DNA from: Solirubrobacterales bacterium
GTDB lineage: Bacteria; Actinomycetota; Thermoleophilia; Solirubrobacterales; 70-9
Assembly (NCBI GenBank): GCA_036271315.1
Contig: DATBAV010000042.1
Span: 47,256-111,255, forward strand
Direction of reading: 5' to 3'
Length of the DNA: 64,000 nt
Every line of letters starts with the position of its first letter. The first letter of the stretch is position 1. The position numbers were made by a program, and so were the translations under genes. The notes under the pieces are model-generated. The model saw nothing but the letters and a program-made list of their open reading frames with translations. It ran no database searches and had not been told where the DNA came from. Shown one piece after another: positions 8,246 through 60,336 of the stretch.

Positions 8246-8349
8246 GAGGGGTCGTGTGCCCCTCTCACAGAGGCTTGGCGACCACATCCCAAATCGCCCA
8301 AGACGATCTGCTGCGCAACGGCCTCTGAGAGAGGGGCACACGACCCCTC
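8246..8349. repeat. 104-nt dyad element with 29-nt inverted arms (28/29 complementary); each arm is itself a hairpin
   Basis: GAGGGGTCGTGTGCCCCTCTCACAGAGGC (8246-8274) pairs with GCCTCTGAGAGAGGGGCACACGACCCCTC (8321-8349). Each arm contains GAGGGG-N7-CCCCTC. Confidence 0.8.
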
Positions 8350-8973: not shown

Positions 8974-9046
8974 TCCGGGGTGGTGTAATCGGCCAGCACG
9001 CTTGGTTTTGGTCCAAGAAGAGAGGGTTCGAGTCCTTCCCCCGGAA
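8974..9046 (+). tRNA. tRNA-Gln (anticodon UUG)
   Basis: Hand-folded cloverleaf. Acceptor stem is TCCGGGG/CCCCGGA and D stem is GTGT/GCAC. Anticodon stem is CTTGG/CCAAG with loop TTTTGGT. T arm is GAGGG-TTCGAGT-CCTTC. Total 73 nt with no encoded CCA. Confidence 0.9.
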
Positions 9047-12133: not shown

Positions 12134-12984
12134 GCCGCGAGCCCCGGTTTCGCGCTCGGCGCCTGACCGGCCTCGCAGACGATCGCATCGTCGCGGGCGA
12201 GTGCCTCCGCCGCCTCCCGGGCCGCCGCCAGGCTCTCGAAGAGCCCGAAAGCGGTGGGGCCGGAGCCGGTGAGCAGCGCGTGCGGTGCGCCGGCATCGCG
12301 CAGGGCGTCGAGGGCGGCCCCGATATCCGGCCGCAGCGAGCGCGCCGCCGGCTCGAGGTCGTTGACGAGCAGCTCCGGGTAGGCGAGCGGCGAGGCGCCC
12401 GCCCCGGCCACAGAGCGCAGGCGCCCCTCCAGCCCCTCCAGCTCCTCGCTACCGCGGCCGAGTCCGAGGCGATCCGCCTCGGCGAAGACGTCAGCGGTGT
12501 CGAGTCCGCCGCCGCCGGGCAGCAGGACCACCGCGTGCGGTTTTGGCTCAGGCAGATGCTCGACGCTCTCCCCCGCCCCCCGCACCAGGGAAAGGGCCGG
12601 CGTCAGCTGCGAGGGCACGTCGGCACCGAGCGCGGCGGCGATCCGCTCCAAGTCGGCGATCTCGCCGGCCGCGAGCCGCAGCACCGCGGCGGCGTCGGCG
12701 CTGCCGCCGCCGAGGCCGGCGGCGACCGGCGTCCTCTTCTCGATCTCGATCCGCAACGGCGGGCTCCCCCAACCGTGCTCGCGCAGCGCCTGCAACGCTT
12801 GCAGCGCCAGGTTCTCGCCCTCGACCCCCGCGCAGATCACCTCGTCCTCGGCTGCCTCGCTCACCTCGATCAGGTCGCCGAGCGCCAGCGGCTCGAACAG
12901 CGAGCAGAGCTCGTGCAGGCCGTCGGCGCGGCGGGCGCCGAGGTAGAGACAGAGGTTGAGCTTGGCCGGAGCAGAGATCCGCAA
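12130..12984 (-). CDS. ispE: 4-diphosphocytidyl-2-C-methyl-D-erythritol kinase
   Basis: GHMP-kinase motif PVAAGLGGGSADAAA and N-terminus RISAPAKLNL. The TTG start at 12984 directly abuts the repeat element. Confidence 0.9.
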   Translation of the reverse strand: MRISAPAKLNLCLYLGARRADGLHELCSLFEPLALGDLIEVSEAAEDEVICAGVEGENLALQALQALREHGWGSPPLRIEIEKRTPVAAGLGGGSADAAAVLRLAAGEIADLERIAAALGADVPSQLTPALSLVRGAGESVEHLPEPKPHAVVLLPGGGGLDTADVFAEADRLGLGRGSEELEGLEGRLRSVAGAGASPLAYPELLVNDLEPAARSLRPDIGAALDALRDAGAPHALLTGSGPTAFGLFESLAAAREAAEALARDDAIVCEAGQAPSAKPGLAA

Positions 12985-13099
12985 GGGGCCTATCCCGGTA
13001 GGGGTTCCACTTAACTTTTTCGGTCGAGTGGAAGTTGTCTACCGTGGGCGGGGTTGGCGAAAAAGTACAAGACGTTCCACCCCTACCGGGATAGGCCCC
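12985..13099. repeat. structured palindromic element, family 1, copy 1 (115 nt)
   Basis: 20-bp perfect outer stem GGGGCCTATCCCGGTAGGGG/CCCCTACCGGGATAGGCCCC around the conserved core TTCCACTTAACTTTTTCG-N35-CGAAAAAGTACAAGACGTTCCA. The same core occurs at 16676-16795 and 54989-55108. Confidence 0.85.
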
Positions 13100-13841
13100 T
13101 GGCCAATGCTCGGAACTCGTTGGGAGAGAGTTGCTCGGCGCGGCTGTCCGCTGGCAGTCCGAGCGCCTCGAGCGCAGATCTGATCGCCTCCATCGAGCCC
13201 GGCCGCACATGCTCGACCGAGCGCGCCAGCGCCTTGCGACGGTGGGCGAAGGCCGCCCGGACCAGCTCGCGCGTCGCCTGGTCGGCGCCCGGGCCGGTGC
13301 GGCGCAGAGCGAGGATCGCCGAGTCCACCCGCGGCCGTGGGCGGAAGACGGCCGGGTCGACCTTGCGCAGCAGGCGCACCTCGCAGGCGAGCTGGGCGAG
13401 CACGCTCGGCGACCCGTAGGTGCGGTTGCCCGGCGCCGCGCGCAGCCGGTCGGCGATCTCGCGCTGCACCATCACGGTCCACGAACGCAGCGAGGGCAGC
13501 TGCTCGATCGTGCGCAGGATCACCGGGGTCGCCACCGAGTAGGGGAGGTTGGAGACGACCACCGTCGGCACCGGCCGCAGGGCGCCGAGGTCGATCCGCA
13601 TCGCATCCGCCCAATGCAGGCTGACGTTGGGTCGGGCGGCCAGGGGCTCGAGCGCCTCGGCCAGGCCCCGATCGAGCTCGACCGAGTGCAGGTGGGCAAC
13701 GACCTCGGCGAGCCGTTCGCTCAGCACCCCTTCCCCCGCACCGACCTCGAGCACCACGTCGTCGGGGCGCAGCTCGGCGTCGCGGACGATCGCGTCGAGC
13801 AGGTTCGGGTCGGAGAGGAAGTTCTGCCCGAGGCGGACCAC
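13083..13841 (-). CDS. rsmA: 16S rRNA (adenine1518/1519-N6)-dimethyltransferase
   Basis: RLGQNFL motif and SAM-binding VLEVGAGEGVLS. The final codons and the TAG lie inside the repeat arm. Confidence 0.95.
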   Translation of the reverse strand: MVRLGQNFLSDPNLLDAIVRDAELRPDDVVLEVGAGEGVLSERLAEVVAHLHSVELDRGLAEALEPLAARPNVSLHWADAMRIDLGALRPVPTVVVSNLPYSVATPVILRTIEQLPSLRSWTVMVQREIADRLRAAPGNRTYGSPSVLAQLACEVRLLRKVDPAVFRPRPRVDSAILALRRTGPGADQATRELVRAAFAHRRKALARSVEHVRPGSMEAIRSALEALGLPADSRAEQLSPNEFRALARGLSR

Positions 13842-15518: not shown

Positions 15519-16694
15519 GTGGCCGACTTCGCCGACTACTACCGCCAGATCTATGTCCTCGGCCTCGGCGGGGAGACCCCGAGCGTGCCCGTCTCTGTCG
15601 CCGAACTGGAGCGCCTCGCCGCCGAGACGATGGACGAGCGCGCCGCCAACTACGTATTTGCCGGCGCCGGCAGCGAGGGCACGATGGACGCCAACCGCGA
15701 GGCCTTCCGGCGGCGGCAGATCGTGCCGCGGATGCTGCGCGACGTCTCCTCGCGCGATCTCTCAACCTCCCTGCTGGGCACGGCGATGCCGGCACCGCTG
15801 CTGCTGGCGCCGATCGGGGTGCAGAAGGTCGTCCACCCCGACGGCGAGCTTGCAACCGCCCGGGCGGCGGCGGCCCTCGGCCTACCGATGATCGCCAGCA
15901 CCAACTCCCACTTCACGCTCGAGGAGATCGCCGAGGCGGGCGGTGACGCGCCGCGCTGGTTCCAGCTCTACTGGCCCAACGACCGCGCCATCGCCGCCAG
16001 CTTCGTCGGCCGCGCCGAGTCGGCCGGCTACGGGGCGATCGTGCTCACCGTCGACACCTTCGTCCCGGGTTGGAAGCCGCGTGACCTGCAGCAGGCCTGG
16101 CTGCCCTTCCTCAACGGCATGGGGGTCGCCAACTACTTCCAGGACCCGGTCTTCCGCGAAGGCCTCGAGAAGCCGCCGGAGGAGGACGTCGGCGGCGCCA
16201 CCGGCCACTTCCTCGGCGTCCAGGCCAACCCCGCGCTGAGCTGGGACGACCTCGCTTGGCTACGCGAGCAGACCGAGTTGCCGATCGTGATCAAGGGGAT
16301 CCAGCACCCCGACGACGCACGCGAGGCGGCGGCCCGCGGCATCGACGGCGTGATCGTCTCCAACCACGGCGGCCGCCAGGTCGACGGCGCGATCGGCGCG
16401 CTGGACGTACTGCCGGCGATCGCCGAGGCTGCCGACGACGAGCTCGCGGTCCTCTTCGACAGCGGCGTGCGCAGCGGCAGCGACGCGATCAAGGCGCTCG
16501 CCCTCGGCGCCGACGCCGTCTGCCTCGGCCGCCCCTATATCTGGGGCCTCGCCCTGGAGGGTCAACAGGGAGTCGAAACCGTGCTCAAGATGGTGCTGGC
16601 CGAGCTCGACCTGACGCTGGCGCTCTGTGGGTACACCGAGCCCAGCCAACTGGGCCCGGACGCGCTCTCTGAGACCCCGGACCTATCCCGGTAG
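15519..16694 (+). CDS. FMN-dependent alpha-hydroxy-acid oxidase/dehydrogenase (lactate 2-monooxygenase/L-lactate oxidase-like)
   Basis: Motif VSNHGGRQ and TIM-barrel FMN family features. GTG start, 391 aa. The last codons and TAG are encoded by repeat copy 2. Confidence 0.88.
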   Translation: MADFADYYRQIYVLGLGGETPSVPVSVAELERLAAETMDERAANYVFAGAGSEGTMDANREAFRRRQIVPRMLRDVSSRDLSTSLLGTAMPAPLLLAPIGVQKVVHPDGELATARAAAALGLPMIASTNSHFTLEEIAEAGGDAPRWFQLYWPNDRAIAASFVGRAESAGYGAIVLTVDTFVPGWKPRDLQQAWLPFLNGMGVANYFQDPVFREGLEKPPEEDVGGATGHFLGVQANPALSWDDLAWLREQTELPIVIKGIQHPDDAREAAARGIDGVIVSNHGGRQVDGAIGALDVLPAIAEAADDELAVLFDSGVRSGSDAIKALALGADAVCLGRPYIWGLALEGQQGVETVLKMVLAELDLTLALCGYTEPSQLGPDALSETPDLSR

Positions 16695-16795
16695 GGGTTT
16701 CACTTAACTTTTTGGGTGGGGACGGGGTTGCTGGCGCCACTGGGTTGGCGGCCAAAAAGCACAAGACGTTTCACCCCTACCGGGATAGGTCCGGG
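16676..16795. repeat. structured palindromic element, family 1, copy 2 (120 nt)
   Basis: 22-bp perfect outer stem CCCGGACCTATCCCGGTAGGGG/CCCCTACCGGGATAGGTCCGGG. The core is TTTCACTTAACTTTTTGG-N36-CCAAAAAGCACAAGACGTTTCA. Confidence 0.85.
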
Positions 16796-44427: not shown

Positions 44428-44453
44428 CAGTGCCGCCTCTCGTGGGTGGGCAC

Positions 44454-44620
44454 TAGGAGTGGCTGGGGGAACCCGCGTGCGTGGGTCGGCGAGCGCCGGA
44501 CCAAGCGGGACAAGGACGCAGGGAGGCCGAATAGCAGCGCTATTCGGCCGACTGAGGACGCCGTACCGCGCAGCGTCCGCCGCCGCCGGACGCGTGCGGG
44601 GGTTCCCCCAGCCACTCCTA
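44454..44620. repeat. 167-nt dyad element filling the hsp20-lon spacer (family 2, strong copy)
   Basis: 21-bp perfect arms are TAGGAGTGGCTGGGGGAACCC (44454-44474) and GGGTTCCCCCAGCCACTCCTA (44600-44620). The central hairpin is GGCCGAATAG-cagcg-CTATTCGGCC (44525-44549). Confidence 0.8.
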
Positions 44621-45013
44621 TTCCCTCCCGATCGGGATCCGGCGGGTGGTCTCGGACGGATCGCGCAGCGGCAGCTCGATCCGCAGCACCCCGTCTTCAT
44701 AGGTCGCCGTGGCCCGCTCGGCGTCGACGTCGACCTGCAGCTCGACCACGCGGCGGAAGGGGCCCGAGGGAATCTCCACCTGCTGGTAGACCCGTCCCTC
44801 GGTCTCCTGCACCTGACGCTCGCCGACTATCGCCAGCTGCCGAGTCCCCACCTCGATCCCGACCTCGTCGAGCTCGACGCCCGCAAGATCGACCTTCACA
44901 ACGGCTCGCTGTGGATCACCGCAGTAATAGACATCCACGTTGGGAGTAAATCCCCTGCTCCTGCGGCTGACGTAGGTAGTCCGCGCCCAGGCATATAGGT
45001 CCCGCTCCGGCAT
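44618..45013 (-). CDS. Hsp20/alpha-crystallin family small heat-shock protein
   Basis: Alpha-crystallin domain (VDVYYCGDP...VVKVDLAGV...DGVLRIELP). 131 aa. The TAG stop forms the end of the dyad arm. Confidence 0.9.
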   Translation of the reverse strand: MPERDLYAWARTTYVSRRSRGFTPNVDVYYCGDPQRAVVKVDLAGVELDEVGIEVGTRQLAIVGERQVQETEGRVYQQVEIPSGPFRRVVELQVDVDAERATATYEDGVLRIELPLRDPSETTRRIPIGRE

Positions 45014-52077: not shown

Positions 52078-53751
52078 GTGGCAACTGTCGAGCACTCAGC
52101 CTCACAAGTGACCCACGAGGTCTTCAACCAGGCCTCGCCGCTGGAGGACTACAACCCCTTTGACGCCGATCGACCGCTGCGCGAGGCGCTGGTCCGCGAG
52201 GGCGCTGGCTGGGCCGAGGACCGGGCCCGCGAGCTCGGCGCGATCTGTGGTTCGGCCCAGACGATCCGCTGGGGCTTCGAGGCCAATGAGAAGAAGCCGC
52301 AGCTGAAGACCCACGACCGCTTCGGTCACCGCATCGACGAGGTCGAGTTCGACAGCTCCTGGCACGAGCTGATGCGGATCGGCTCCAGCCACGGCCTGCA
52401 CGCAATGCCCTGGCGCGAGCCGGGCGTCGGTGCCCACGTCGCCCGCGCGGCGATGTTCATGTTGCTGATGCAGGCGGAGAGCGGCGTCGGTTGCCCACTC
52501 TCGATGACCTACTCGGCGATCCCGGCGCTGCGCAAGCAGCCCGAGCTGGCAGCCGAGTGGGAGGAGCGCTTCCTCTCGCTCGACTACGACGAGCGCTCGC
52601 TGCCCGCCGATCGCAAGAGCGGCGCCCTCTGCGGGATGGCGATGACCGAGAAGCAGGGCGGTTCCGACGTGCGCGCCAACACCACCGTGGCGACGCCGCT
52701 CAACGGCGGCGGGCCCGGGGCCGAGTACGAGCTGGTCGGCCACAAGTGGTTCTGCTCGGCGCCGATGTGCGATGCCTTCCTCGTCCTTGCTCAGACCGAC
52801 TCCGGCGTCTCCTGCTTCCTGATGCCGCGCTGGACCCCCGATGGCGAGCGCAACGCCTTCCAGATCCAGCGCCTCAAGGACAAGCTCGGCAACCGCTCCA
52901 ACGCCTCCTCGGAGCTCGAGTTCCGCGGCGCTTGGGCGCGCATGGTCGGCGAGGAGGGACGCGGCGTGCCGACGATCATCGAGATGGTCAACCACACCCG
53001 CCTCGACTGCGTGATCGGTGCCGCCACCGGCTACCGGGCCGGGCTCGTGCAGGCACTCAACCACACCGAACACCGGGCGGCCTTCGGCAAGGAGCTGATC
53101 GACCAGCCGCTGATGCAGAACGTGCTCGCCGACCTCGCGGTCGAGTCCGAAGCCGCCACGGTCGCCGCGATGCGCCTCGCCCGCGCCTACGACGAGGCCG
53201 CCGCTGGCGAGGAGGACGCCGCCAATTTCCGCCGCCTCGCCAACGCCGTCCTCAAGTACTGGATGTGCAAGCGCGCCCCCTCCCATGCGGTCGAGTGCCT
53301 CGAGTGCCTGGGCGGCAATGGCTACGTCGAGGAGTCGGGCATGCCCCGCCTCTACCGCGAGGCCCCGCTCGCCTCGATCTGGGAGGGCTCCGGCAACGTC
53401 CAGTGCCTCGACGCCCTGCGGGCGATGGTCAAGAGCCCGGCCTCGGTCGAGGCATTCTTCGCCGAGGTCGAAGCCGGCTCCGGCGCCGAACCGAAGCTCG
53501 ACAACTACATCGCCGCCCTGAAGGACGAAATCCCCGGCGACGTCGCGACGATCGAGTCCCGCGCCCGCCGCATCGTCGAGGGCATGGCCGTCGCCCTTCA
53601 AGCTTCCCTACTTGTTCGTTACGGCGATCCGGCGGTCGCCGACGCCTTCTGCGCCTCGCGCCTCTCTGGCGACTGGGGCAACGCCTTCGGAACCCTTCCA
53701 GCGGGCACGAACTTCAGCTCAATAATCGAGCGCCACCGGCCCCGGGCCTGA
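52078..53751 (+). CDS. acyl-CoA dehydrogenase (AidB-like long form)
   Basis: 557 aa with ACAD middle and C-terminal domains (MTEKQGGSDV, YREAPLASIWEGSGNV). Confidence 0.9.
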   Translation: MATVEHSASQVTHEVFNQASPLEDYNPFDADRPLREALVREGAGWAEDRARELGAICGSAQTIRWGFEANEKKPQLKTHDRFGHRIDEVEFDSSWHELMRIGSSHGLHAMPWREPGVGAHVARAAMFMLLMQAESGVGCPLSMTYSAIPALRKQPELAAEWEERFLSLDYDERSLPADRKSGALCGMAMTEKQGGSDVRANTTVATPLNGGGPGAEYELVGHKWFCSAPMCDAFLVLAQTDSGVSCFLMPRWTPDGERNAFQIQRLKDKLGNRSNASSELEFRGAWARMVGEEGRGVPTIIEMVNHTRLDCVIGAATGYRAGLVQALNHTEHRAAFGKELIDQPLMQNVLADLAVESEAATVAAMRLARAYDEAAAGEEDAANFRRLANAVLKYWMCKRAPSHAVECLECLGGNGYVEESGMPRLYREAPLASIWEGSGNVQCLDALRAMVKSPASVEAFFAEVEAGSGAEPKLDNYIAALKDEIPGDVATIESRARRIVEGMAVALQASLLVRYGDPAVADAFCASRLSGDWGNAFGTLPAGTNFSSIIERHRPRA

Positions 53752-53813
53752 GCCGCCGGGAGTTCCCTGTCAGGAACTCCCGCGAAGCGGCCTGACAAGG
53801 AACCCCCGGCGGC
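53752..53813. terminator. nested hairpins between convergent genes (probable bidirectional, I-shaped terminator)
   Basis: CGGGAGTTCC-ctgtca-GGAACTCCCG (53757-53782) is a 10-bp perfect stem. An outer pair GCCGCCGGG/CCCGGCGGC is also present. There is no clear U-tract. Confidence 0.5.
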
Positions 53814-54974
53814 TCACGTCGACTGGTCGCGTAGCGCTCGTCCTACCTGCTCGGCGGTGATCACGCCCGAAAGGCGACCGTCGGCGTCGACCGCCATCAA
53901 GGCACCGAAGCGCCTCAGCGCCCCGCTAGTGAGCAGCGAATCGAGTGGAGCGTCGTCGCGCACCTGGAAGGTGCCGTCGTTGTGCTCGAGCAGATCGGAG
54001 ACGTGCCAGCTCGTGCGCGAGGTCTCGGGAACCTCATCCGCTTTGTCGCGGACGACGAGTCCGAGGAAGTGGTGGGCGGCATCGACCACCGGGAACCAGG
54101 GCCAGCGATAGCGGAGGAAGTATTCGTCCAGCGCCTGCTCGACGCTCAACTCATCGAGGATCGTCACCGGCTGGCGGTCCATCACGTCGGAGACCTGGAG
54201 GCTGCTGATCTTGCCGGTGATCCGCGTCTGCACTGAAGCGGCCTTGGCGGAGCCGTTGATCACGAAGCCGATCAGGGCAAGCCATACCCCGCTGAAGGCG
54301 TCGCCGACGCCGATCAGCACCAGCCCGCCGCCGATGAAGATGTAGCCGAAGACGCGGCCGAGGTTGGCGGCGAAGCGGGTTGCCGAGTTGCGGTCGCCGG
54401 TGCGCCACCAGGCGATCGCGCGGACGATCCGGCCACCGTCCATCGGGAAGGCCGGCAGGAGGTTGAAGATGAGCACGGCCGCGTTGATCCAAGCCAGCCA
54501 GCCGACCACCGCCATCGCTCCCGAGACGCCGGAGCCGGATTCGATCTCCACGGCGCGCTTGAACTCCTCCGGCCCGACCGCGGCCAGGCCCACTGCCGTA
54601 AGCACGATGACGATGGCAAGCGTCACCAGCGGGCCCGCGACCGCCACCTTGAACTCGGCCGCGGGGCTGGGGGACTCGCGATCCATCCGCGCCATGCCGC
54701 CGAAGATCCAGAGCTGGATGCTGGAGATGCCGATGCCGTTGCGCTGGGCGGCAAAGGCGTGGCCGAGCTCGTGCAGGACGATCGAGCCGAAGAAGGCGAG
54801 AGCGCTGATCACCGCCAGCACGAAGGCCGTCGAGCTGGAGCTGCTCTCGCCGAGCACGTCGCCGTAGAAGCTCGACAGCCAGAGGATCACCAGGAAGAGG
54901 ATCAGGAACCACGACCAGTCGACTGTGATGCGGATGCCGCGGACGTGGAACAGGGTTATCGGTTTGCCGCCCAT
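53814..54974 (-). CDS. site-2 protease (M50) family metalloprotease with C-terminal CBS pair
   Basis: HELGH motif (VLHELGHAFAA) and multiple TM helices. The start was moved to ATG 54974 (MGGKPITLFHV...); the track start 55016 lies inside repeat copy 3. Confidence 0.9.
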   Translation of the reverse strand: MGGKPITLFHVRGIRITVDWSWFLILFLVILWLSSFYGDVLGESSSSSTAFVLAVISALAFFGSIVLHELGHAFAAQRNGIGISSIQLWIFGGMARMDRESPSPAAEFKVAVAGPLVTLAIVIVLTAVGLAAVGPEEFKRAVEIESGSGVSGAMAVVGWLAWINAAVLIFNLLPAFPMDGGRIVRAIAWWRTGDRNSATRFAANLGRVFGYIFIGGGLVLIGVGDAFSGVWLALIGFVINGSAKAASVQTRITGKISSLQVSDVMDRQPVTILDELSVEQALDEYFLRYRWPWFPVVDAAHHFLGLVVRDKADEVPETSRTSWHVSDLLEHNDGTFQVRDDAPLDSLLTSGALRRFGALMAVDADGRLSGVITAEQVGRALRDQST

Positions 54975-54988
54975 CACAGGTCCAATCG

Positions 54989-55108
54989 TACGTGGCCGTC
55001 CAGGCGGGGGTTCCACTTAACTTTTTCGGTGGGGCGTGGTTGGGCTGGCGCCTAAAGCTCCCGACGAAAAAGTGCAAGACGTTCCACCCCCGCCTGGACG
55101 GCCACGTA
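54989..55108. repeat. structured palindromic element, family 1, copy 3 (120 nt)
   Basis: 22-bp perfect outer stem TACGTGGCCGTCCAGGCGGGGG/CCCCCGCCTGGACGGCCACGTA. The core is TTCCACTTAACTTTTTCG-N36-CGAAAAAGTGCAAGACGTTCCA. Confidence 0.85.
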
Positions 55109-55121
55109 TAAGTTCGCGGCG

Positions 55122-56297
55122 ATGGCGGCAAACCAAGACCAGCTTCGAGAGTGGCTCGAGCAGCTCGAGCAGATCCATAGGCCTTCGGCCTCCGATGGCG
55201 AGCGGCGTGCTGCGGAGTGGATCGTCGAGCGCTTCAGGGAGCTTGGAGCGGAGGCGCGGATTGAGGCTGAGATCGCGCACGGCACTTATTGGTGGCCGCT
55301 GGGCCTTGGCGCGGCGCTGGGGGTACTGGGCGGCTGGCTCGGGTTGCGGGGGCGCAGGTTGGTCGGAGCTCTCCTGGGACTCGGCGGAGCCGCGGGGATC
55401 GCTGCCGACTTTCCACCCGGCAAGCGTCCGCTGCGCCGGCTGTTGCCCAAGCGCACCACCTACAACGTCGTCTGCGAGCTCGGACCGACCGAGGCTGAGC
55501 GCACCGTCGTCCTCATCGCCCACCACGACGCCGCCCACTCCGGCCTGATCTTCCACCCGCGGATCCCCAGGATCGCCGACCGCCTCGGCCTGATCGAGGG
55601 CAAAGACACGAGCCCGATGCTGATGGCGCCGGTGGTGGGCGGCCCGCTACTCGCCGGCCTGGGTGCCCTGATGGGACGACGCTGGCTGGCCAGGCTCGGT
55701 GCCCTCTGCGGCCTCGGCACGGTCGCGGCGATGGCCGACATCGGCCGGCGCGAGACCGTGCCCGGTGCCAACGACAACGGCACCGGCGTCGTCGCCCTGC
55801 TGGCGCTGGCGAAGCGACTGGTCGAGGAGCCGACCGCGGACGTCCGCGTCATCCTCCTCTCGGTCGGATCCGAGGAGTCCTTCAGCGAGGGGATCAAGGC
55901 CTTCGGCGAGCGCCACTTCGCTGAGCTGCCGCGCGAGAGCACCTTCTTCCTCTGCCTCGAGTCGCTCGGCTCGCCCCACCTCTTGGTGCTGCGCGGCGAG
56001 GGCTTCCTCGAGATGCACGAGTACCCGCAGCGCTCCCTGGCGTTGATGGACGAGCTGGCCGAGGAGCTGGGGATCTGGCTCTATCCCAACCTGCGCCTGC
56101 ACAACGGCACCGACGGCCTCGAGCCGCTGGCGGCGGGCTATGAGACCGCCGCGCTCTGCGCCTGCAACGAGCTCAAGCAGCCGGCCTTCTACCACTGGCC
56201 CAACGACGTCGCCGCCAACGTCGAGTTCGGCACCGTCGCCGACGGCATCCGCCTCAGCGAGGCCGCGATCCGTCGCCTCGACCAGCGCTGGCTGTAG
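55122..56297 (+). CDS. M28-family membrane-associated metallopeptidase
   Basis: Motifs [12 protein letters not shown] and [16 protein letters not shown] are typical of M28 peptidases, with TM segments in the N-terminal part. Confidence 0.85.
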
Positions 56298-59220: not shown

Positions 59221-60125
59221 GCGAGCAGATCAAGGTCGCCTACTGGCCCGGCTGCGTCTCGCGCGGCTTCACCACCGAGCTGCACGGCTCGATGGCGATC
59301 GCCGCCCAGAAGCTCGACATCGAGTTGGTCGAACTCGACCGCGCCAACTGCTGCGGCGCCGGCGTCATCGCCGAGCACAACCAGGAGCTGGCCGACACGC
59401 TCAACGCCCGCACCTTCGCCCTCGCTCAGCAGACCGGCCTCTCGATGATGAACATCTGCTCGACCTGCCAGGGCGCGCAGTCGGAGTGCCAGCAACGACT
59501 CGACGCCGACTCCTCCTACCGCGCCCACATCAACGAGGTGCTGAGCGGCCAGGGCCTCTCCTACGAGAAGGGCAAGGACGGCTTCACCAACAAGAACTTC
59601 CTCTGGTTGCTGGTCGAGGACTACGGCCTCGACCGCCTCGCCGAGAAGGTGACGCGCCCGCTCAGCGGCCTGCGCGTAGGCCCCTTCTACGGCTGCTATG
59701 TGGTCCGCCCCAAGGAGCGGCTCGGCTACGACGAGTTCCCCGAACGCGATCTCTACCTGGAGAAGGTGATCGAGGCGCTCGGCGGCGAGGTCGTCGAGTA
59801 CGACGGCGCCCGCAAGTGCTGCGGCTTTCCCGTGATCACGATGAACCGCGACACCTCGCTGCGCCAGGCCGGCACCCACGTCGGCGACGCGCTCGACGCC
59901 GGCGCCGACTGCCTCGTCACCCCCTGCCCCCTCTGTCACCTCAACCTCGACATGCAGCAGCCCGAGGCGGCCAAGGTGGTCAATAGGGACTTGGGCCTCG
60001 CGGTCCTGCATCTCCCCCAGCTCGTCTCGCTCGCCCTCGGCGCCTCGCCGAAGGAACTGGGGATGAGCAAGCACATCGCTTCGACCAAGTGGGTTGAAGA
60101 GCGGCTTGCTGCGGTTCCTGCCTGA
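59217..60125 (+). CDS. HdrB-like CCG-domain protein (SdhE-type subunit of non-classical succinate:quinone oxidoreductase)
   Basis: Two Cys-rich CCG-type motifs (WPGCVSR...ANCCGAG and FYGCY...RKCCGFP). It overlaps sdhB by 4 nt. 302 aa. Confidence 0.85.
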
Positions 60126-60145
60126 TTCGCTGACCTGAACGGGGT

Positions 60146-60213
60146 GAGCGCGTGCGCAGGGGTCTGCGGACGCGCTTCGCGCTGAGTGTCCGCAGACCCC
60201 TGCGCACGCGCTC
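60146..60213. repeat. 26-bp perfect inverted repeat (hairpin, 16-nt loop) just downstream of the sdh operon; possible terminator or REP-like element
   Basis: GAGCGCGTGCGCAGGGGTCTGCGGAC (60146-60171) pairs with GTCCGCAGACCCCTGCGCACGCGCTC (60188-60213). Confidence 0.75.
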
Positions 60214-60336
60214 TTCTCGATTCGGAGAGCAGATCAAGCAGGATCAGCTCCAAGAAGTCCATCCACTCTGTCTCGAAAGCTCAAGGCTCTGGGACTTCGG
60301 CGAGCTCGGCACCTTGGAGCGAACCTCAGTCGGAGG

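Follow-up and report, generated by a model that had tools for sequence, protein, structure and literature searches.

The spacer between the divergent M50 protease and M28 peptidase genes of a Solirubrobacterales genome carries an element of 120 nt, here called copy 3, which is probably an anciently inserted and vertically inherited member of a family of ~120-nt hairpin repeats; the family would have a lifestyle like that of REP/BIME elements with the opposite layout of conservation, and its functional form would be a fold-back structure. The comparisons set out below show that the structure is maintained, that the core is strongly constrained and that copy 3 is old and inherited. This hairpin-repeat family of uncultured soil Solirubrobacterales is previously undescribed: no description of it was found in the literature on Solirubrobacterales and Thermoleophilia repeats and RNA motifs, there was no match to the element in the plasmid collection, and in the window (the whole stretch of 64,000 nt that was analysed) the only feature to pass the Rfam 15 threshold is a tRNA elsewhere. 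At the copy 3 locus Rfam 15 returned only generic hairpin matches to miRNA models, at 33 bits against a threshold of 97. One match on a viral contig was a chance match in AT-rich DNA that came without arms, and carriage by phage was rejected.

Copy 3 lies at positions 54989-55108 of the window and, as an earlier note on this DNA had it, takes up 120 of the 147 nt between the divergent starts of the two genes, ATG 54974 for the M50 protease with a CBS domain (- strand) and ATG 55122 for the M28 peptidase (+ strand), both of which are confirmed by Pfam. The outer arms, previously described as perfectly paired, are indeed 23/23 complementary and enclose a 74-nt interior. A GTG at 55016, within the element, had been annotated as the M50 start and suspected of being an artefact, and this it proves to be, as the orthologues align from MGGKP at 54974 and spacers that lack the element have no such extension. 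The parts of copy 3, the two promoter-like hexamers that border it and the other two copies of the family in the window are as follows.

54985..54990, - strand: -10-like hexamer TACGAT (TANNNT), a putative promoter element of M50, adjoining the left stem foot with a 2-nt overlap
54989..55011, + strand: left outer arm TACGTGGCCGTCCAGGCGGGGGT, 23/23 complementary to 55086-55108, with 7 compensated differences from copy 1
55012..55019, + strand: left side of the internal loop, TCCACTTA, (nearly) invariant in 124 copies
55020..55028, + strand: left strand of the inner helix, ACTTTTTCG, A/T-rich, with its partner at 55065-55073
55029..55064, + strand: variable apical module with the short motif GGCTGGCGCC, for which the family has two sequence types and no consensus fold
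55065..55073, + strand: right strand of the inner helix, CGAAAAAGT, which pairs with ACTTTTTCG
55074..55085, + strand: right side of the internal loop, GCAAGACGTTCC, with CAAGACGTT free of variation among the pattern-selected copies and >90% conservation at the positions on either side of it
55086..55108, + strand: right outer arm ACCCCCGCCTGGACGGCCACGTA, the complement of the left arm
55109..55114, + strand: -10-like hexamer TAAGTT (TANNNT), a putative promoter element of M28, immediately past the right stem foot, with 7 nt separating it from ATG 55122
12981..13103, + strand: family copy 1, between two - strand genes, with the stop codon of the upstream gene (13083-13085) inside the right arm
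16676..16795, + strand: family copy 2, between convergent genes for an FMN-dependent dehydrogenase (+) and an ABC-2 permease (-), with a stop codon (16692-16694) inside the left arm

Each strand of copy 3 is predicted to form a rod, and the two rods are equal in stability (-79.8 and -78.1 kcal/mol, z = -8.5 and -9.3). Within the internal loop the CTT of the left side (55012..55019) is predicted to pair with the AAG at 55076-55078, a pairing that RNAalifold gives as CUU/AAG, and the A of the CAC on the left side covaries with a T on the right side; the apical module of copy 3 folds locally. The core blocks TTCCACTTAACTTTTTCGG and CGAAAAAGTRCAAGACGTTCCA recur at 12981-13103 and 16676-16795, the number of such matches expected in shuffles being zero, and a covariance model run over the whole window finds exactly three copies, these two and 54989-55108. 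The core is therefore shared with copies 1 and 2, as had been claimed, and outside the apical module it differs from that of copy 1 at a single position (GTGCAAG versus GTACAAG, the G at 55074). The arm sequence of copy 3 has no second occurrence within the window and was taken in the earlier note to be unrelated to that of copy 1, a description that does not survive alignment of the two: GTGGCCGTCCAGGCGGGGGT versus GGGCCTATCCCGGTAGGGGT are identical at 13 of 20 positions (65%), and for each of the 7 that differ the right arm has the mirrored change, which compensates it. This degree of identity, with every difference mirrored, makes the arm of copy 3 a diverged homologue of the family arm. 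Two other loci, L042 and L051, appear from their flanks to be orthologous to copy 1.

A species-level scan (one genome per species) with the pattern CACTTAACTTTTT-N33-63-CAAGACGTT matched at least 119 loci, nearly all of them in MAGs of uncultured Solirubrobacterales/Thermoleophilia with chromosomes of 2.5-3 Mb, and a profile search of 1.36 Mb of Solirubrobacterales DNA recovered 174 distinct copies; once ascertainment is allowed for, copies occur about once every 20-70 kb. Complete chromosomes in which the family is present include OY969700.1, OY970392.1 and OY970376.1. The outer stem, measured in 124 copies, has a median length of 21 bp and is 95.6% Watson-Crick, with double changes at 20/20 pairs and 593 compensated cells against 136 +/- 9 in shuffles, and none of 500 shuffles reached the observed values. 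Of the outer-stem cells 96.9% are paired, as opposed to 42-55% when the partners are slid by 1-3 columns. Variation is distributed unevenly along the hairpin: at the outer 7-8 bp of the arms every one of the four pair types occurs and variation is essentially free, the inner ~13 bp of the outer stem show partial conservation (..ATCCCGGTAGGGGT), and there is next to no variation in the asymmetric internal loop (UCCACUUA / RCAAGACGUUCC) and the 9-bp A/T inner helix. The two uppermost pairs of this helix covary (CG 93/UA 17/GC 9 and GC 87/UA 17/CG 16), the variants being TTTTTCCG/CGGAAAAA, TTTTTTTG/CAAAAAAA and TTTTTGGG/CCCAAAAA. Inside the internal loop CAC/GTT is found in ~150 copies, CGC/GCT in 17 and a G.T intermediate in 1; the replacement of CAC/GTT by CGC/GCT fits a base pair at this place, and the 17 copies may be one sub-family by descent, in other words a single event that was spread by copying. 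In the apical module, where alignments are poor, no conserved structure was found beyond a GGC/GCC mini-stem.

The mismatches in these 124 copies comprise 19 G.T versus 55 A.C, wobbles thus being rare and not favoured, and position 6, which is C.A in 21 copies, is the source of much of the A.C excess on the CACTTAAC strand, to which position 1 adds 8 more; by class, 74 mismatches are transition-type and 40 transversion-type. As a guide to the active strand this A.C excess is ambiguous, since it is gone in the orthologues described next (7 versus 6) and clashes with the sense bias at co-directional sites. A second repeat family, with a conserved loop CCGCTTCGCGGGAGTT and covarying stems, is present in the same genomes.

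The history of copy 3 can be followed at its own locus. The element is present between M50 and M28 orthologues 74-85% identical to those of the window at L088, L106 and L114, and a metagenome scan with the M50 alignment added 80 further loci of 73-96% identity, among which 22 of the 76 with upstream DNA have the element in the M50-M28 spacer. Its orientation is identical in all 22 and in L088, L106 and L114, and all spacer copies except that of L180 carry the locus signature GTACGGGG..GGGTGGGGG. Across the 26 orthologous spacer copies 499/520 stem cells (96%) are Watson-Crick, the pair type is switched (at least two types) at 15/20 stem positions, and the mismatches, 6 G.T, 7 A.C and 8 other, show no preference for wobbles. 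As it is a single orthologous locus that is followed, these changes represent compensatory evolution free of the confounding effect of transposition, and with the 593 compensated cells of the wider family they bear out the earlier proposal that pairing itself is maintained. The arms are specific to their locus; a second sub-family copied with identical arms to many loci, which the earlier note had put forward as the finding that would overturn its reading, was not what we saw. Arm and core variants are common to related lineages, for example L126/L128/L131 and L106/L182, and appear to follow the host tree. L180, which has consensus-type arms at a slightly different position and 38 extra nt, may be a second insertion or a conversion.

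At 26 further loci M28 is adjacent and the spacer is without the element, so that about half of the related spacers are empty. The earlier note had suggested that such empty sites be searched for a bare palindrome into which the core might have been inserted, and the bare 22-bp palindrome occurs in 0/26 of them. In distant empty spacers the two TANNNT boxes stand nearly back to back (e.g. ATGGTA-N6-9-TAGGGT) with no palindrome, and in L176 and L188 they overlap. What close relatives have instead are deletion remnants, asymmetric arm fragments being left in the empty spacers of L120, L195, L140, L121 and L157. The spacer of L120, whose M50 is 96% identical, reads CGTACGGGGCGGTCCG·ACCCGTAT, the first 15 nt being those of the left arm of L122, and as 15 nt of one arm only are kept, inner-arm sequence included, L120 is a deletion product. 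L195, a sister to the element-bearing L106/L182, has only the outer 7 bp left, and L140 retains GTACGTGGCC, the start of the arm found in the window; analogous losses by deletion are seen at the M50 3' end in L176, L114, L136 and L166. Filled and empty spacers are intermixed throughout the M50 tree, for which the simplest reading is one old insertion followed by vertical descent and many independent internal deletions. The tree behind this reading is a single NJ tree of one protein, and several site-specific insertions instead of one gain and many losses are the alternative to it.

Genes around the copies were called from codon-position G+C, which gave 36 convergent, 37 co-directional and 6 divergent sites among those fully classified, copy 3 being a member of the rare divergent class. 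Copies concentrate at gene 3' ends, where the commonest arrangement has the stop codon reaching 1-3 nt into the stem foot. At co-directional sites the CACTTAAC strand is sense in 27 and antisense in 10, a bias (approximately p = 0.008 by the normal approximation to the binomial, for copies that are not independent of one another) that may be a sign of a role specific to one strand, perhaps as RNA, and that an argument from the symmetry of the stem leaves unexplained. There is no T run after the stem on either strand, and the terminator scan gave only an internal chance site.

Traces of mobility were sought in several ways. Direct repeats in the flanks are at chance level (8 versus 6.9 for k=2, 1 versus 1.5 for k=3), and no target-site duplication was detected by this count. 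A 5-nt direct repeat around the core (TTCCA..TTCCA, or TTTCA..TTTCA in copy 2) was entertained as a duplication and rejected, because its T/A belongs to the stem and covaries to C/G; the positions of the repeat vary independently in 124 copies. Two candidates for a carrier were also discarded. A DDE (IS1380-type) transposase lies between two inverted copies in L073, and as its own inverted repeats are 40-60 nt away from the hairpins it is unrelated to them; the gene between inverted copies in L099 is a rhomboid protease. The bare hairpin GGGGTTYCACCCC is absent from the window.

Directly 3' of the M50 stop codon a copy of the present family is found in 17/80 loci, with 13 in one orientation and 4 in the other, the two orientations being found in different lineages, and both core sub-families (CAC/GTT and CGC/GCT) occur there. 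These copies have family-type arms and not the stems of the second-family hairpin that is resident at this position in the window and in many relatives. The sister lineages L143 and L154 have the same arms with the core flipped, which implies that arms recombine; the loop of the second family is likewise inverted in L127/L192. Deletion derivatives are found here too, with arms only in L176, the tip lost in L114, the left half lost in L136 and one arm in L166 and L174. The copies at the M50 3' end thus indicate that the family was mobile in the past, that it brings its own arms, and that it flips and decays by internal deletion.

The surroundings of copy 3 look like those of two promoters. From TACGAT it is 7 nt to GTG 54977 and 10 nt to ATG 54974, and a TANNNT is present 3-13 nt upstream of the M50 start in 46/46 orthologous spacers, filled and empty alike (background 0.7%), and upstream of the M28 ATG in 38/46, at 6-10 nt before the ATG. 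A spacing of 7 nt between box and start is the geometry of leaderless actinobacterial mRNAs, which suggests that the M28 mRNA may be leaderless, and apparently both promoters would be, although this is read from the TANNNT boxes and the spacer might still be transcribed. A scan of the spacer for E. coli-type sigma-70 promoters found nothing, the scan needing a TTGACA-like -35 hexamer, which is generally missing from actinobacterial promoters. Because the element sits exactly between both -10-like boxes it replaces the upstream promoter regions and should be outside both mRNAs. The earlier contention that copy 3 is not only a terminator and overlaps the promoters is therefore supported, for the upstream promoter regions rather than for 5' UTRs. 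A CGAAAAAGT tract is found ~50 nt upstream of the M28 start codon, and by symmetry a matching tract would be placed at a similar distance upstream of M50. Furthermore spacer copies have a higher profile score than 3'-end copies (median 87 versus 69 bits), which argues that the spacer copies are not decaying.

We infer that the working form of the family is a fold-back structure of single-stranded nucleic acid, in which the conserved loop and the A/T helix would form a putative site at which a clade-specific protein docks. Where it usually sits, in either orientation within the ~120 nt that follow a stop codon, the element may provide a transcript-end hairpin of -80 kcal/mol that could block read-through or 3' decay for one or both of two convergent genes. 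At the M50-M28 locus the element would lie between the -10 boxes of leaderless divergent promoters and outside both mRNAs, and the form acting there may be one of DNA, a single-stranded DNA hairpin or a cruciform recognised by the partner protein of the family. That conservation is equally good between promoters suggests that the element is needed as DNA or on both strands, more than in a role confined to 3'-UTR RNA, and the rarity of G·U pairs, the flips of orientation and the conservation at an apparently untranscribed site point to the same both-strand or DNA-level role, as in REP/RAYT. The 27:10 sense bias keeps an RNA component alive.

Three other explanations have to be weighed against an old, inherited repeat that works as a fold-back. 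It would seem unlikely that the family is a cis-acting RNA and nothing else, a 3'-UTR (or 5'-UTR) module whose loop binds an RNA-binding protein or RNase, with copy 3 in a long leader of M28 or M50. The strong covariation of outer and inner helices, the placement at 3' ends with stop codons in the stem foot and the sense bias at co-directional sites are all what such a module would predict, as is the sole intermediate of the internal pair, a G.U on the CACUUAAC strand; however, G.U is as rare as A.C or rarer (19 versus 55, and 6 versus 7 in the orthologues), unlike in typical RNA helices, both orientations persist at one convergent site and the core flips in sister lineages, no Rfam family matches, and the -10-like boxes are outside the element, face away from it and do not differ in empty spacers. 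We regard as highly improbable the proposal of the earlier note that a ~76-nt core inserts into pre-existing palindromes, here widened to a core that may include the inner arms and that moves by transposition into loops of palindromes or terminators, the outer stems being host sequence. The freedom of the outer ~7 bp beside a semi-conserved inner 13 bp would suit it, copies do recur where related lineages carry other hairpins, and some empty spacers have short palindromic feet (TACGGGG-CCT-CCCCGTA in L195, TACGC-G-GCGTA in L121), but the sisters around L195 in the tree carry the element and have matching arms, L120 with 15 nt of one arm is a deletion product, and distant empty spacers have no palindrome. 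Moreover the copies at the M50 3' end ignore the resident second-family stems and bring their own arms, the arms of copy 3 are homologous to those of copy 1 (65% identical across the full 20 bp), a target-site duplication is undetectable and the TTYCA direct repeat does not covary.

A selfish or neutral palindrome, in which template switching or conversion from arm to arm maintains the pairing and the core is homogenised from ~50-100 other copies with no function for the host, is in our view decidedly unlikely. Inversion of the core between identical arms (L143/L154, and L127/L192 in the second family) is arm recombination of the kind that this requires, the mismatches with their 74 transition-type and 40 transversion-type cases resemble unselected transients, and loss is frequent, half of the orthologous spacers being empty. 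Against this the core is near-invariant where the flanking proteins are only ~75% identical and arms 1-20 nt away change freely, and conversion tracts confined to a 75-nt core between heterologous flanks would need to occur at very high frequency; in addition, copies strongly favour 3' ends where the stop codon falls in the foot, and spacer copies are not decaying. The reading of copy 3 as an ancient, inherited member of a fold-back repeat family is thus the one that we prefer. A bolder extension of it, that both families (loop CCGCTTCGCGGGAGTT included) are the nucleic-acid half of an undescribed clade-specific system, whose dedicated protein would read the asymmetric loop on an ssDNA fold-back or on either RNA strand, is a tentative idea and on balance a somewhat doubtful one. 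If true, it would make the family a replicator like REPIN/RAYT with inverted architecture or, alternatively, a DNA-level structural element at convergent ends and at divergent leaderless promoters, such as a supercoil-driven cruciform or a protein-bound insulator.

Solirubrobacterales are abundant and mostly uncultured soil Actinomycetota whose non-coding DNA is almost uncharted, and in them the family lets compensatory changes be followed cleanly through 26 lineages at one locus, in a repeat with a conserved internal loop rather than conserved ends. The same module at gene 3' ends and, apparently untranscribed, between leaderless promoters is a natural experiment in which RNA-level and DNA-level roles could be separated, a distinction at issue for REP, ERIC and similar repeats as well. 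The covariance model can be used to annotate MAGs and to correct gene starts and ends that run into elements, such as 55016, and the filled/empty polymorphism of the spacer is a possible lineage marker.

Several known classes of element share features with the family. A canonical intrinsic terminator has the stable hairpin in common with it and has the U tract that it lacks. Actinobacterial hairpin-only ("I-shaped") intrinsic terminators lack a U tract; they are stable, G+C-rich hairpins that mark gene 3' ends, in many cases where two genes converge. In M. tuberculosis the TRIT motif is a repeat of terminator-like form whose sequence is conserved. The family resembles the former as a stable hairpin without a U tract at gene 3' ends and differs from both in its long conserved asymmetric loop with an A/T helix and in being well conserved also between divergent promoters, where termination is not needed. 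The attC sites of integrons are conserved in structure and variable in sequence, form ssDNA hairpins at gene 3' ends, and have R''/R' boxes (RYYYAAC / GTTRRRY) in a cassette array near intI. ACTTAAC of the family fits RYYYAAC, however there is no GTTRRRY partner, the right side being GTRCAAGACGTT, the conserved sequence is internal rather than terminal, and the flanking genes are housekeeping genes (M50, M28 and similar) found with both orientations and no integrase context. ERIC/IRU, Correia (NEMIS) and similar MITE-like elements measure 100-170 bp, are imperfectly palindromic and lie between genes in DNA that is transcribed; some copies have come to lie in promoter regions and affect mRNA processing or supply promoter elements. 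These families have conserved terminal inverted repeats, with a TA duplication in Correia, whereas the termini of the present family are variable and a duplication is undetectable. Nor does the family look like an IS-derived MITE, which is marked by conserved terminal inverted repeats and a target-site duplication; its own termini are variable, direct repeats in its flanks are at chance level, and the sole nearby IS has unrelated ends.

The family also resembles REP/BIME elements with tnpAREP (RAYT), as in E. coli, which are likewise high-copy, extragenic and palindromic and lie mostly after genes or between convergent genes (PMC8266576). Further points in common are the folding into hairpins in single-stranded DNA or RNA, the lack of target-site duplications, a GTAG/CTAC tetranucleotide (GGTAGGGG / CCCCTACC in the family) and an unrelated IS between two copies, as in L073. 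A crude motif test for a RAYT found no HUH...YxxNP ORF in 1.36 Mb, which covers ~1% of each genome. A REP/BIME unit measures 20-50 nt, is itself palindromic and has a conserved GTAG in front of it (PMC8266576), whereas the unit of the present family is one 120-nt hairpin whose halves are not self-complementary, its GTAG is inside the 20-bp stem and present in ~56-73% of arms (position 6 being T-A in 69/124 and C.A in 21), and conservation is highest in the "linker" between its arms, the part that varies most in REP/BIME elements. Pseudomonas REPINs are also hairpins of ~100 nt, with inverted arms around a ~70-nt spacer and common compensatory changes (PMC3116915), and like them the family shows mostly vertical persistence and asymmetric products of excision or deletion. 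REPINs consist of two invariant terminal 16-mers with a less conserved spacer (PMC3116915); in the family described here it is the ends that are variable and the middle that is invariant.

Among the 124 aligned copies of family 1, the ~120-nt hairpin repeats with a conserved core and variable paired arms, a C·A mismatch recurs in 21 copies at position 6 of the stem, counted from its inner end (for example GGCAGGGG / CCCCTACC), and the reciprocal T·G is found in none of the 124. This one-sided pattern suggests that the right-arm A at position 6 (GTAG on the opposite strand) is subject to a sequence constraint beyond pairing.

The spacer between the divergent M50 protease and M28 peptidase genes, which holds a family-1 copy in the window, was compared with related loci (L numbers). 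In L166 the M50-M28 spacer holds a different hairpin upstream of M50, with a 16-bp stem (GGACGTGCCGGTGCTG…CAGCACCGGCACGTCC), and therefore unrelated hairpins recur between these divergent promoters. The spacer upstream of M50 in L180 does carry a family-1 copy, its arms being of the consensus type (GGGGCTATCCCGGTAGGGGT) and not locus-specific, together with 38 additional nt ahead of the putative -10 box of M28; this copy could be an independent insertion or a replacement by another copy. An inverted repeat outside the element spans the initial codons of each of the two genes, M50 and M28:

54961-54971 and 55124-55134, 11-nt perfect inverted repeat, GGTTTGCCGCC / GGCGGCAAACC

The M28 side of this repeat is not conserved in the orthologues, which argues that it is probably due to chance or lineage-specific.

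At the 3' end of M50 lies a member of a second hairpin family, which has a conserved loop, CAGG-CCGCTTCGCGGGAGTT-CCTG, and stems of variable sequence in which changes are compensated:

53749-53816, second-family hairpin, loop as reverse complement

Both convergent genes have their stop codons (TGA 53749, TCA 53816) in the feet of its stem. A second-family hairpin is also present at the M50 3' end in L121, L124-L126, L129, L130, L133, L137-L139, L144, L152, L191 and L194; L127 and L192 carry the loop in inverted orientation, and derivatives lacking the loop are present in L122 and L140.

In L073 two inverted family-1 copies flank a short spacer, which holds an insertion sequence:

L073 4097-5754, IS1380-type insertion sequence, DDE_Tnp_1_4 transposase, own 18-nt inverted repeats

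Its position may be a coincidence or may reflect a preference for hairpin-rich intergenic DNA.

In the window as a whole, the one Rfam match that reaches the gathering threshold is a tRNA gene. There are also three other long hairpins:

8974-9046, tRNA gene
8246-8349, long hairpin, arms 29 nt, 97% complementarity
44449-44625, long hairpin, arms 29 nt, 90% complementarity, 119 nt between arms
60105-60254, long hairpin, arms 67 nt, 78% complementarity

These hairpins differ in sequence and may represent further repeat families of this genome.
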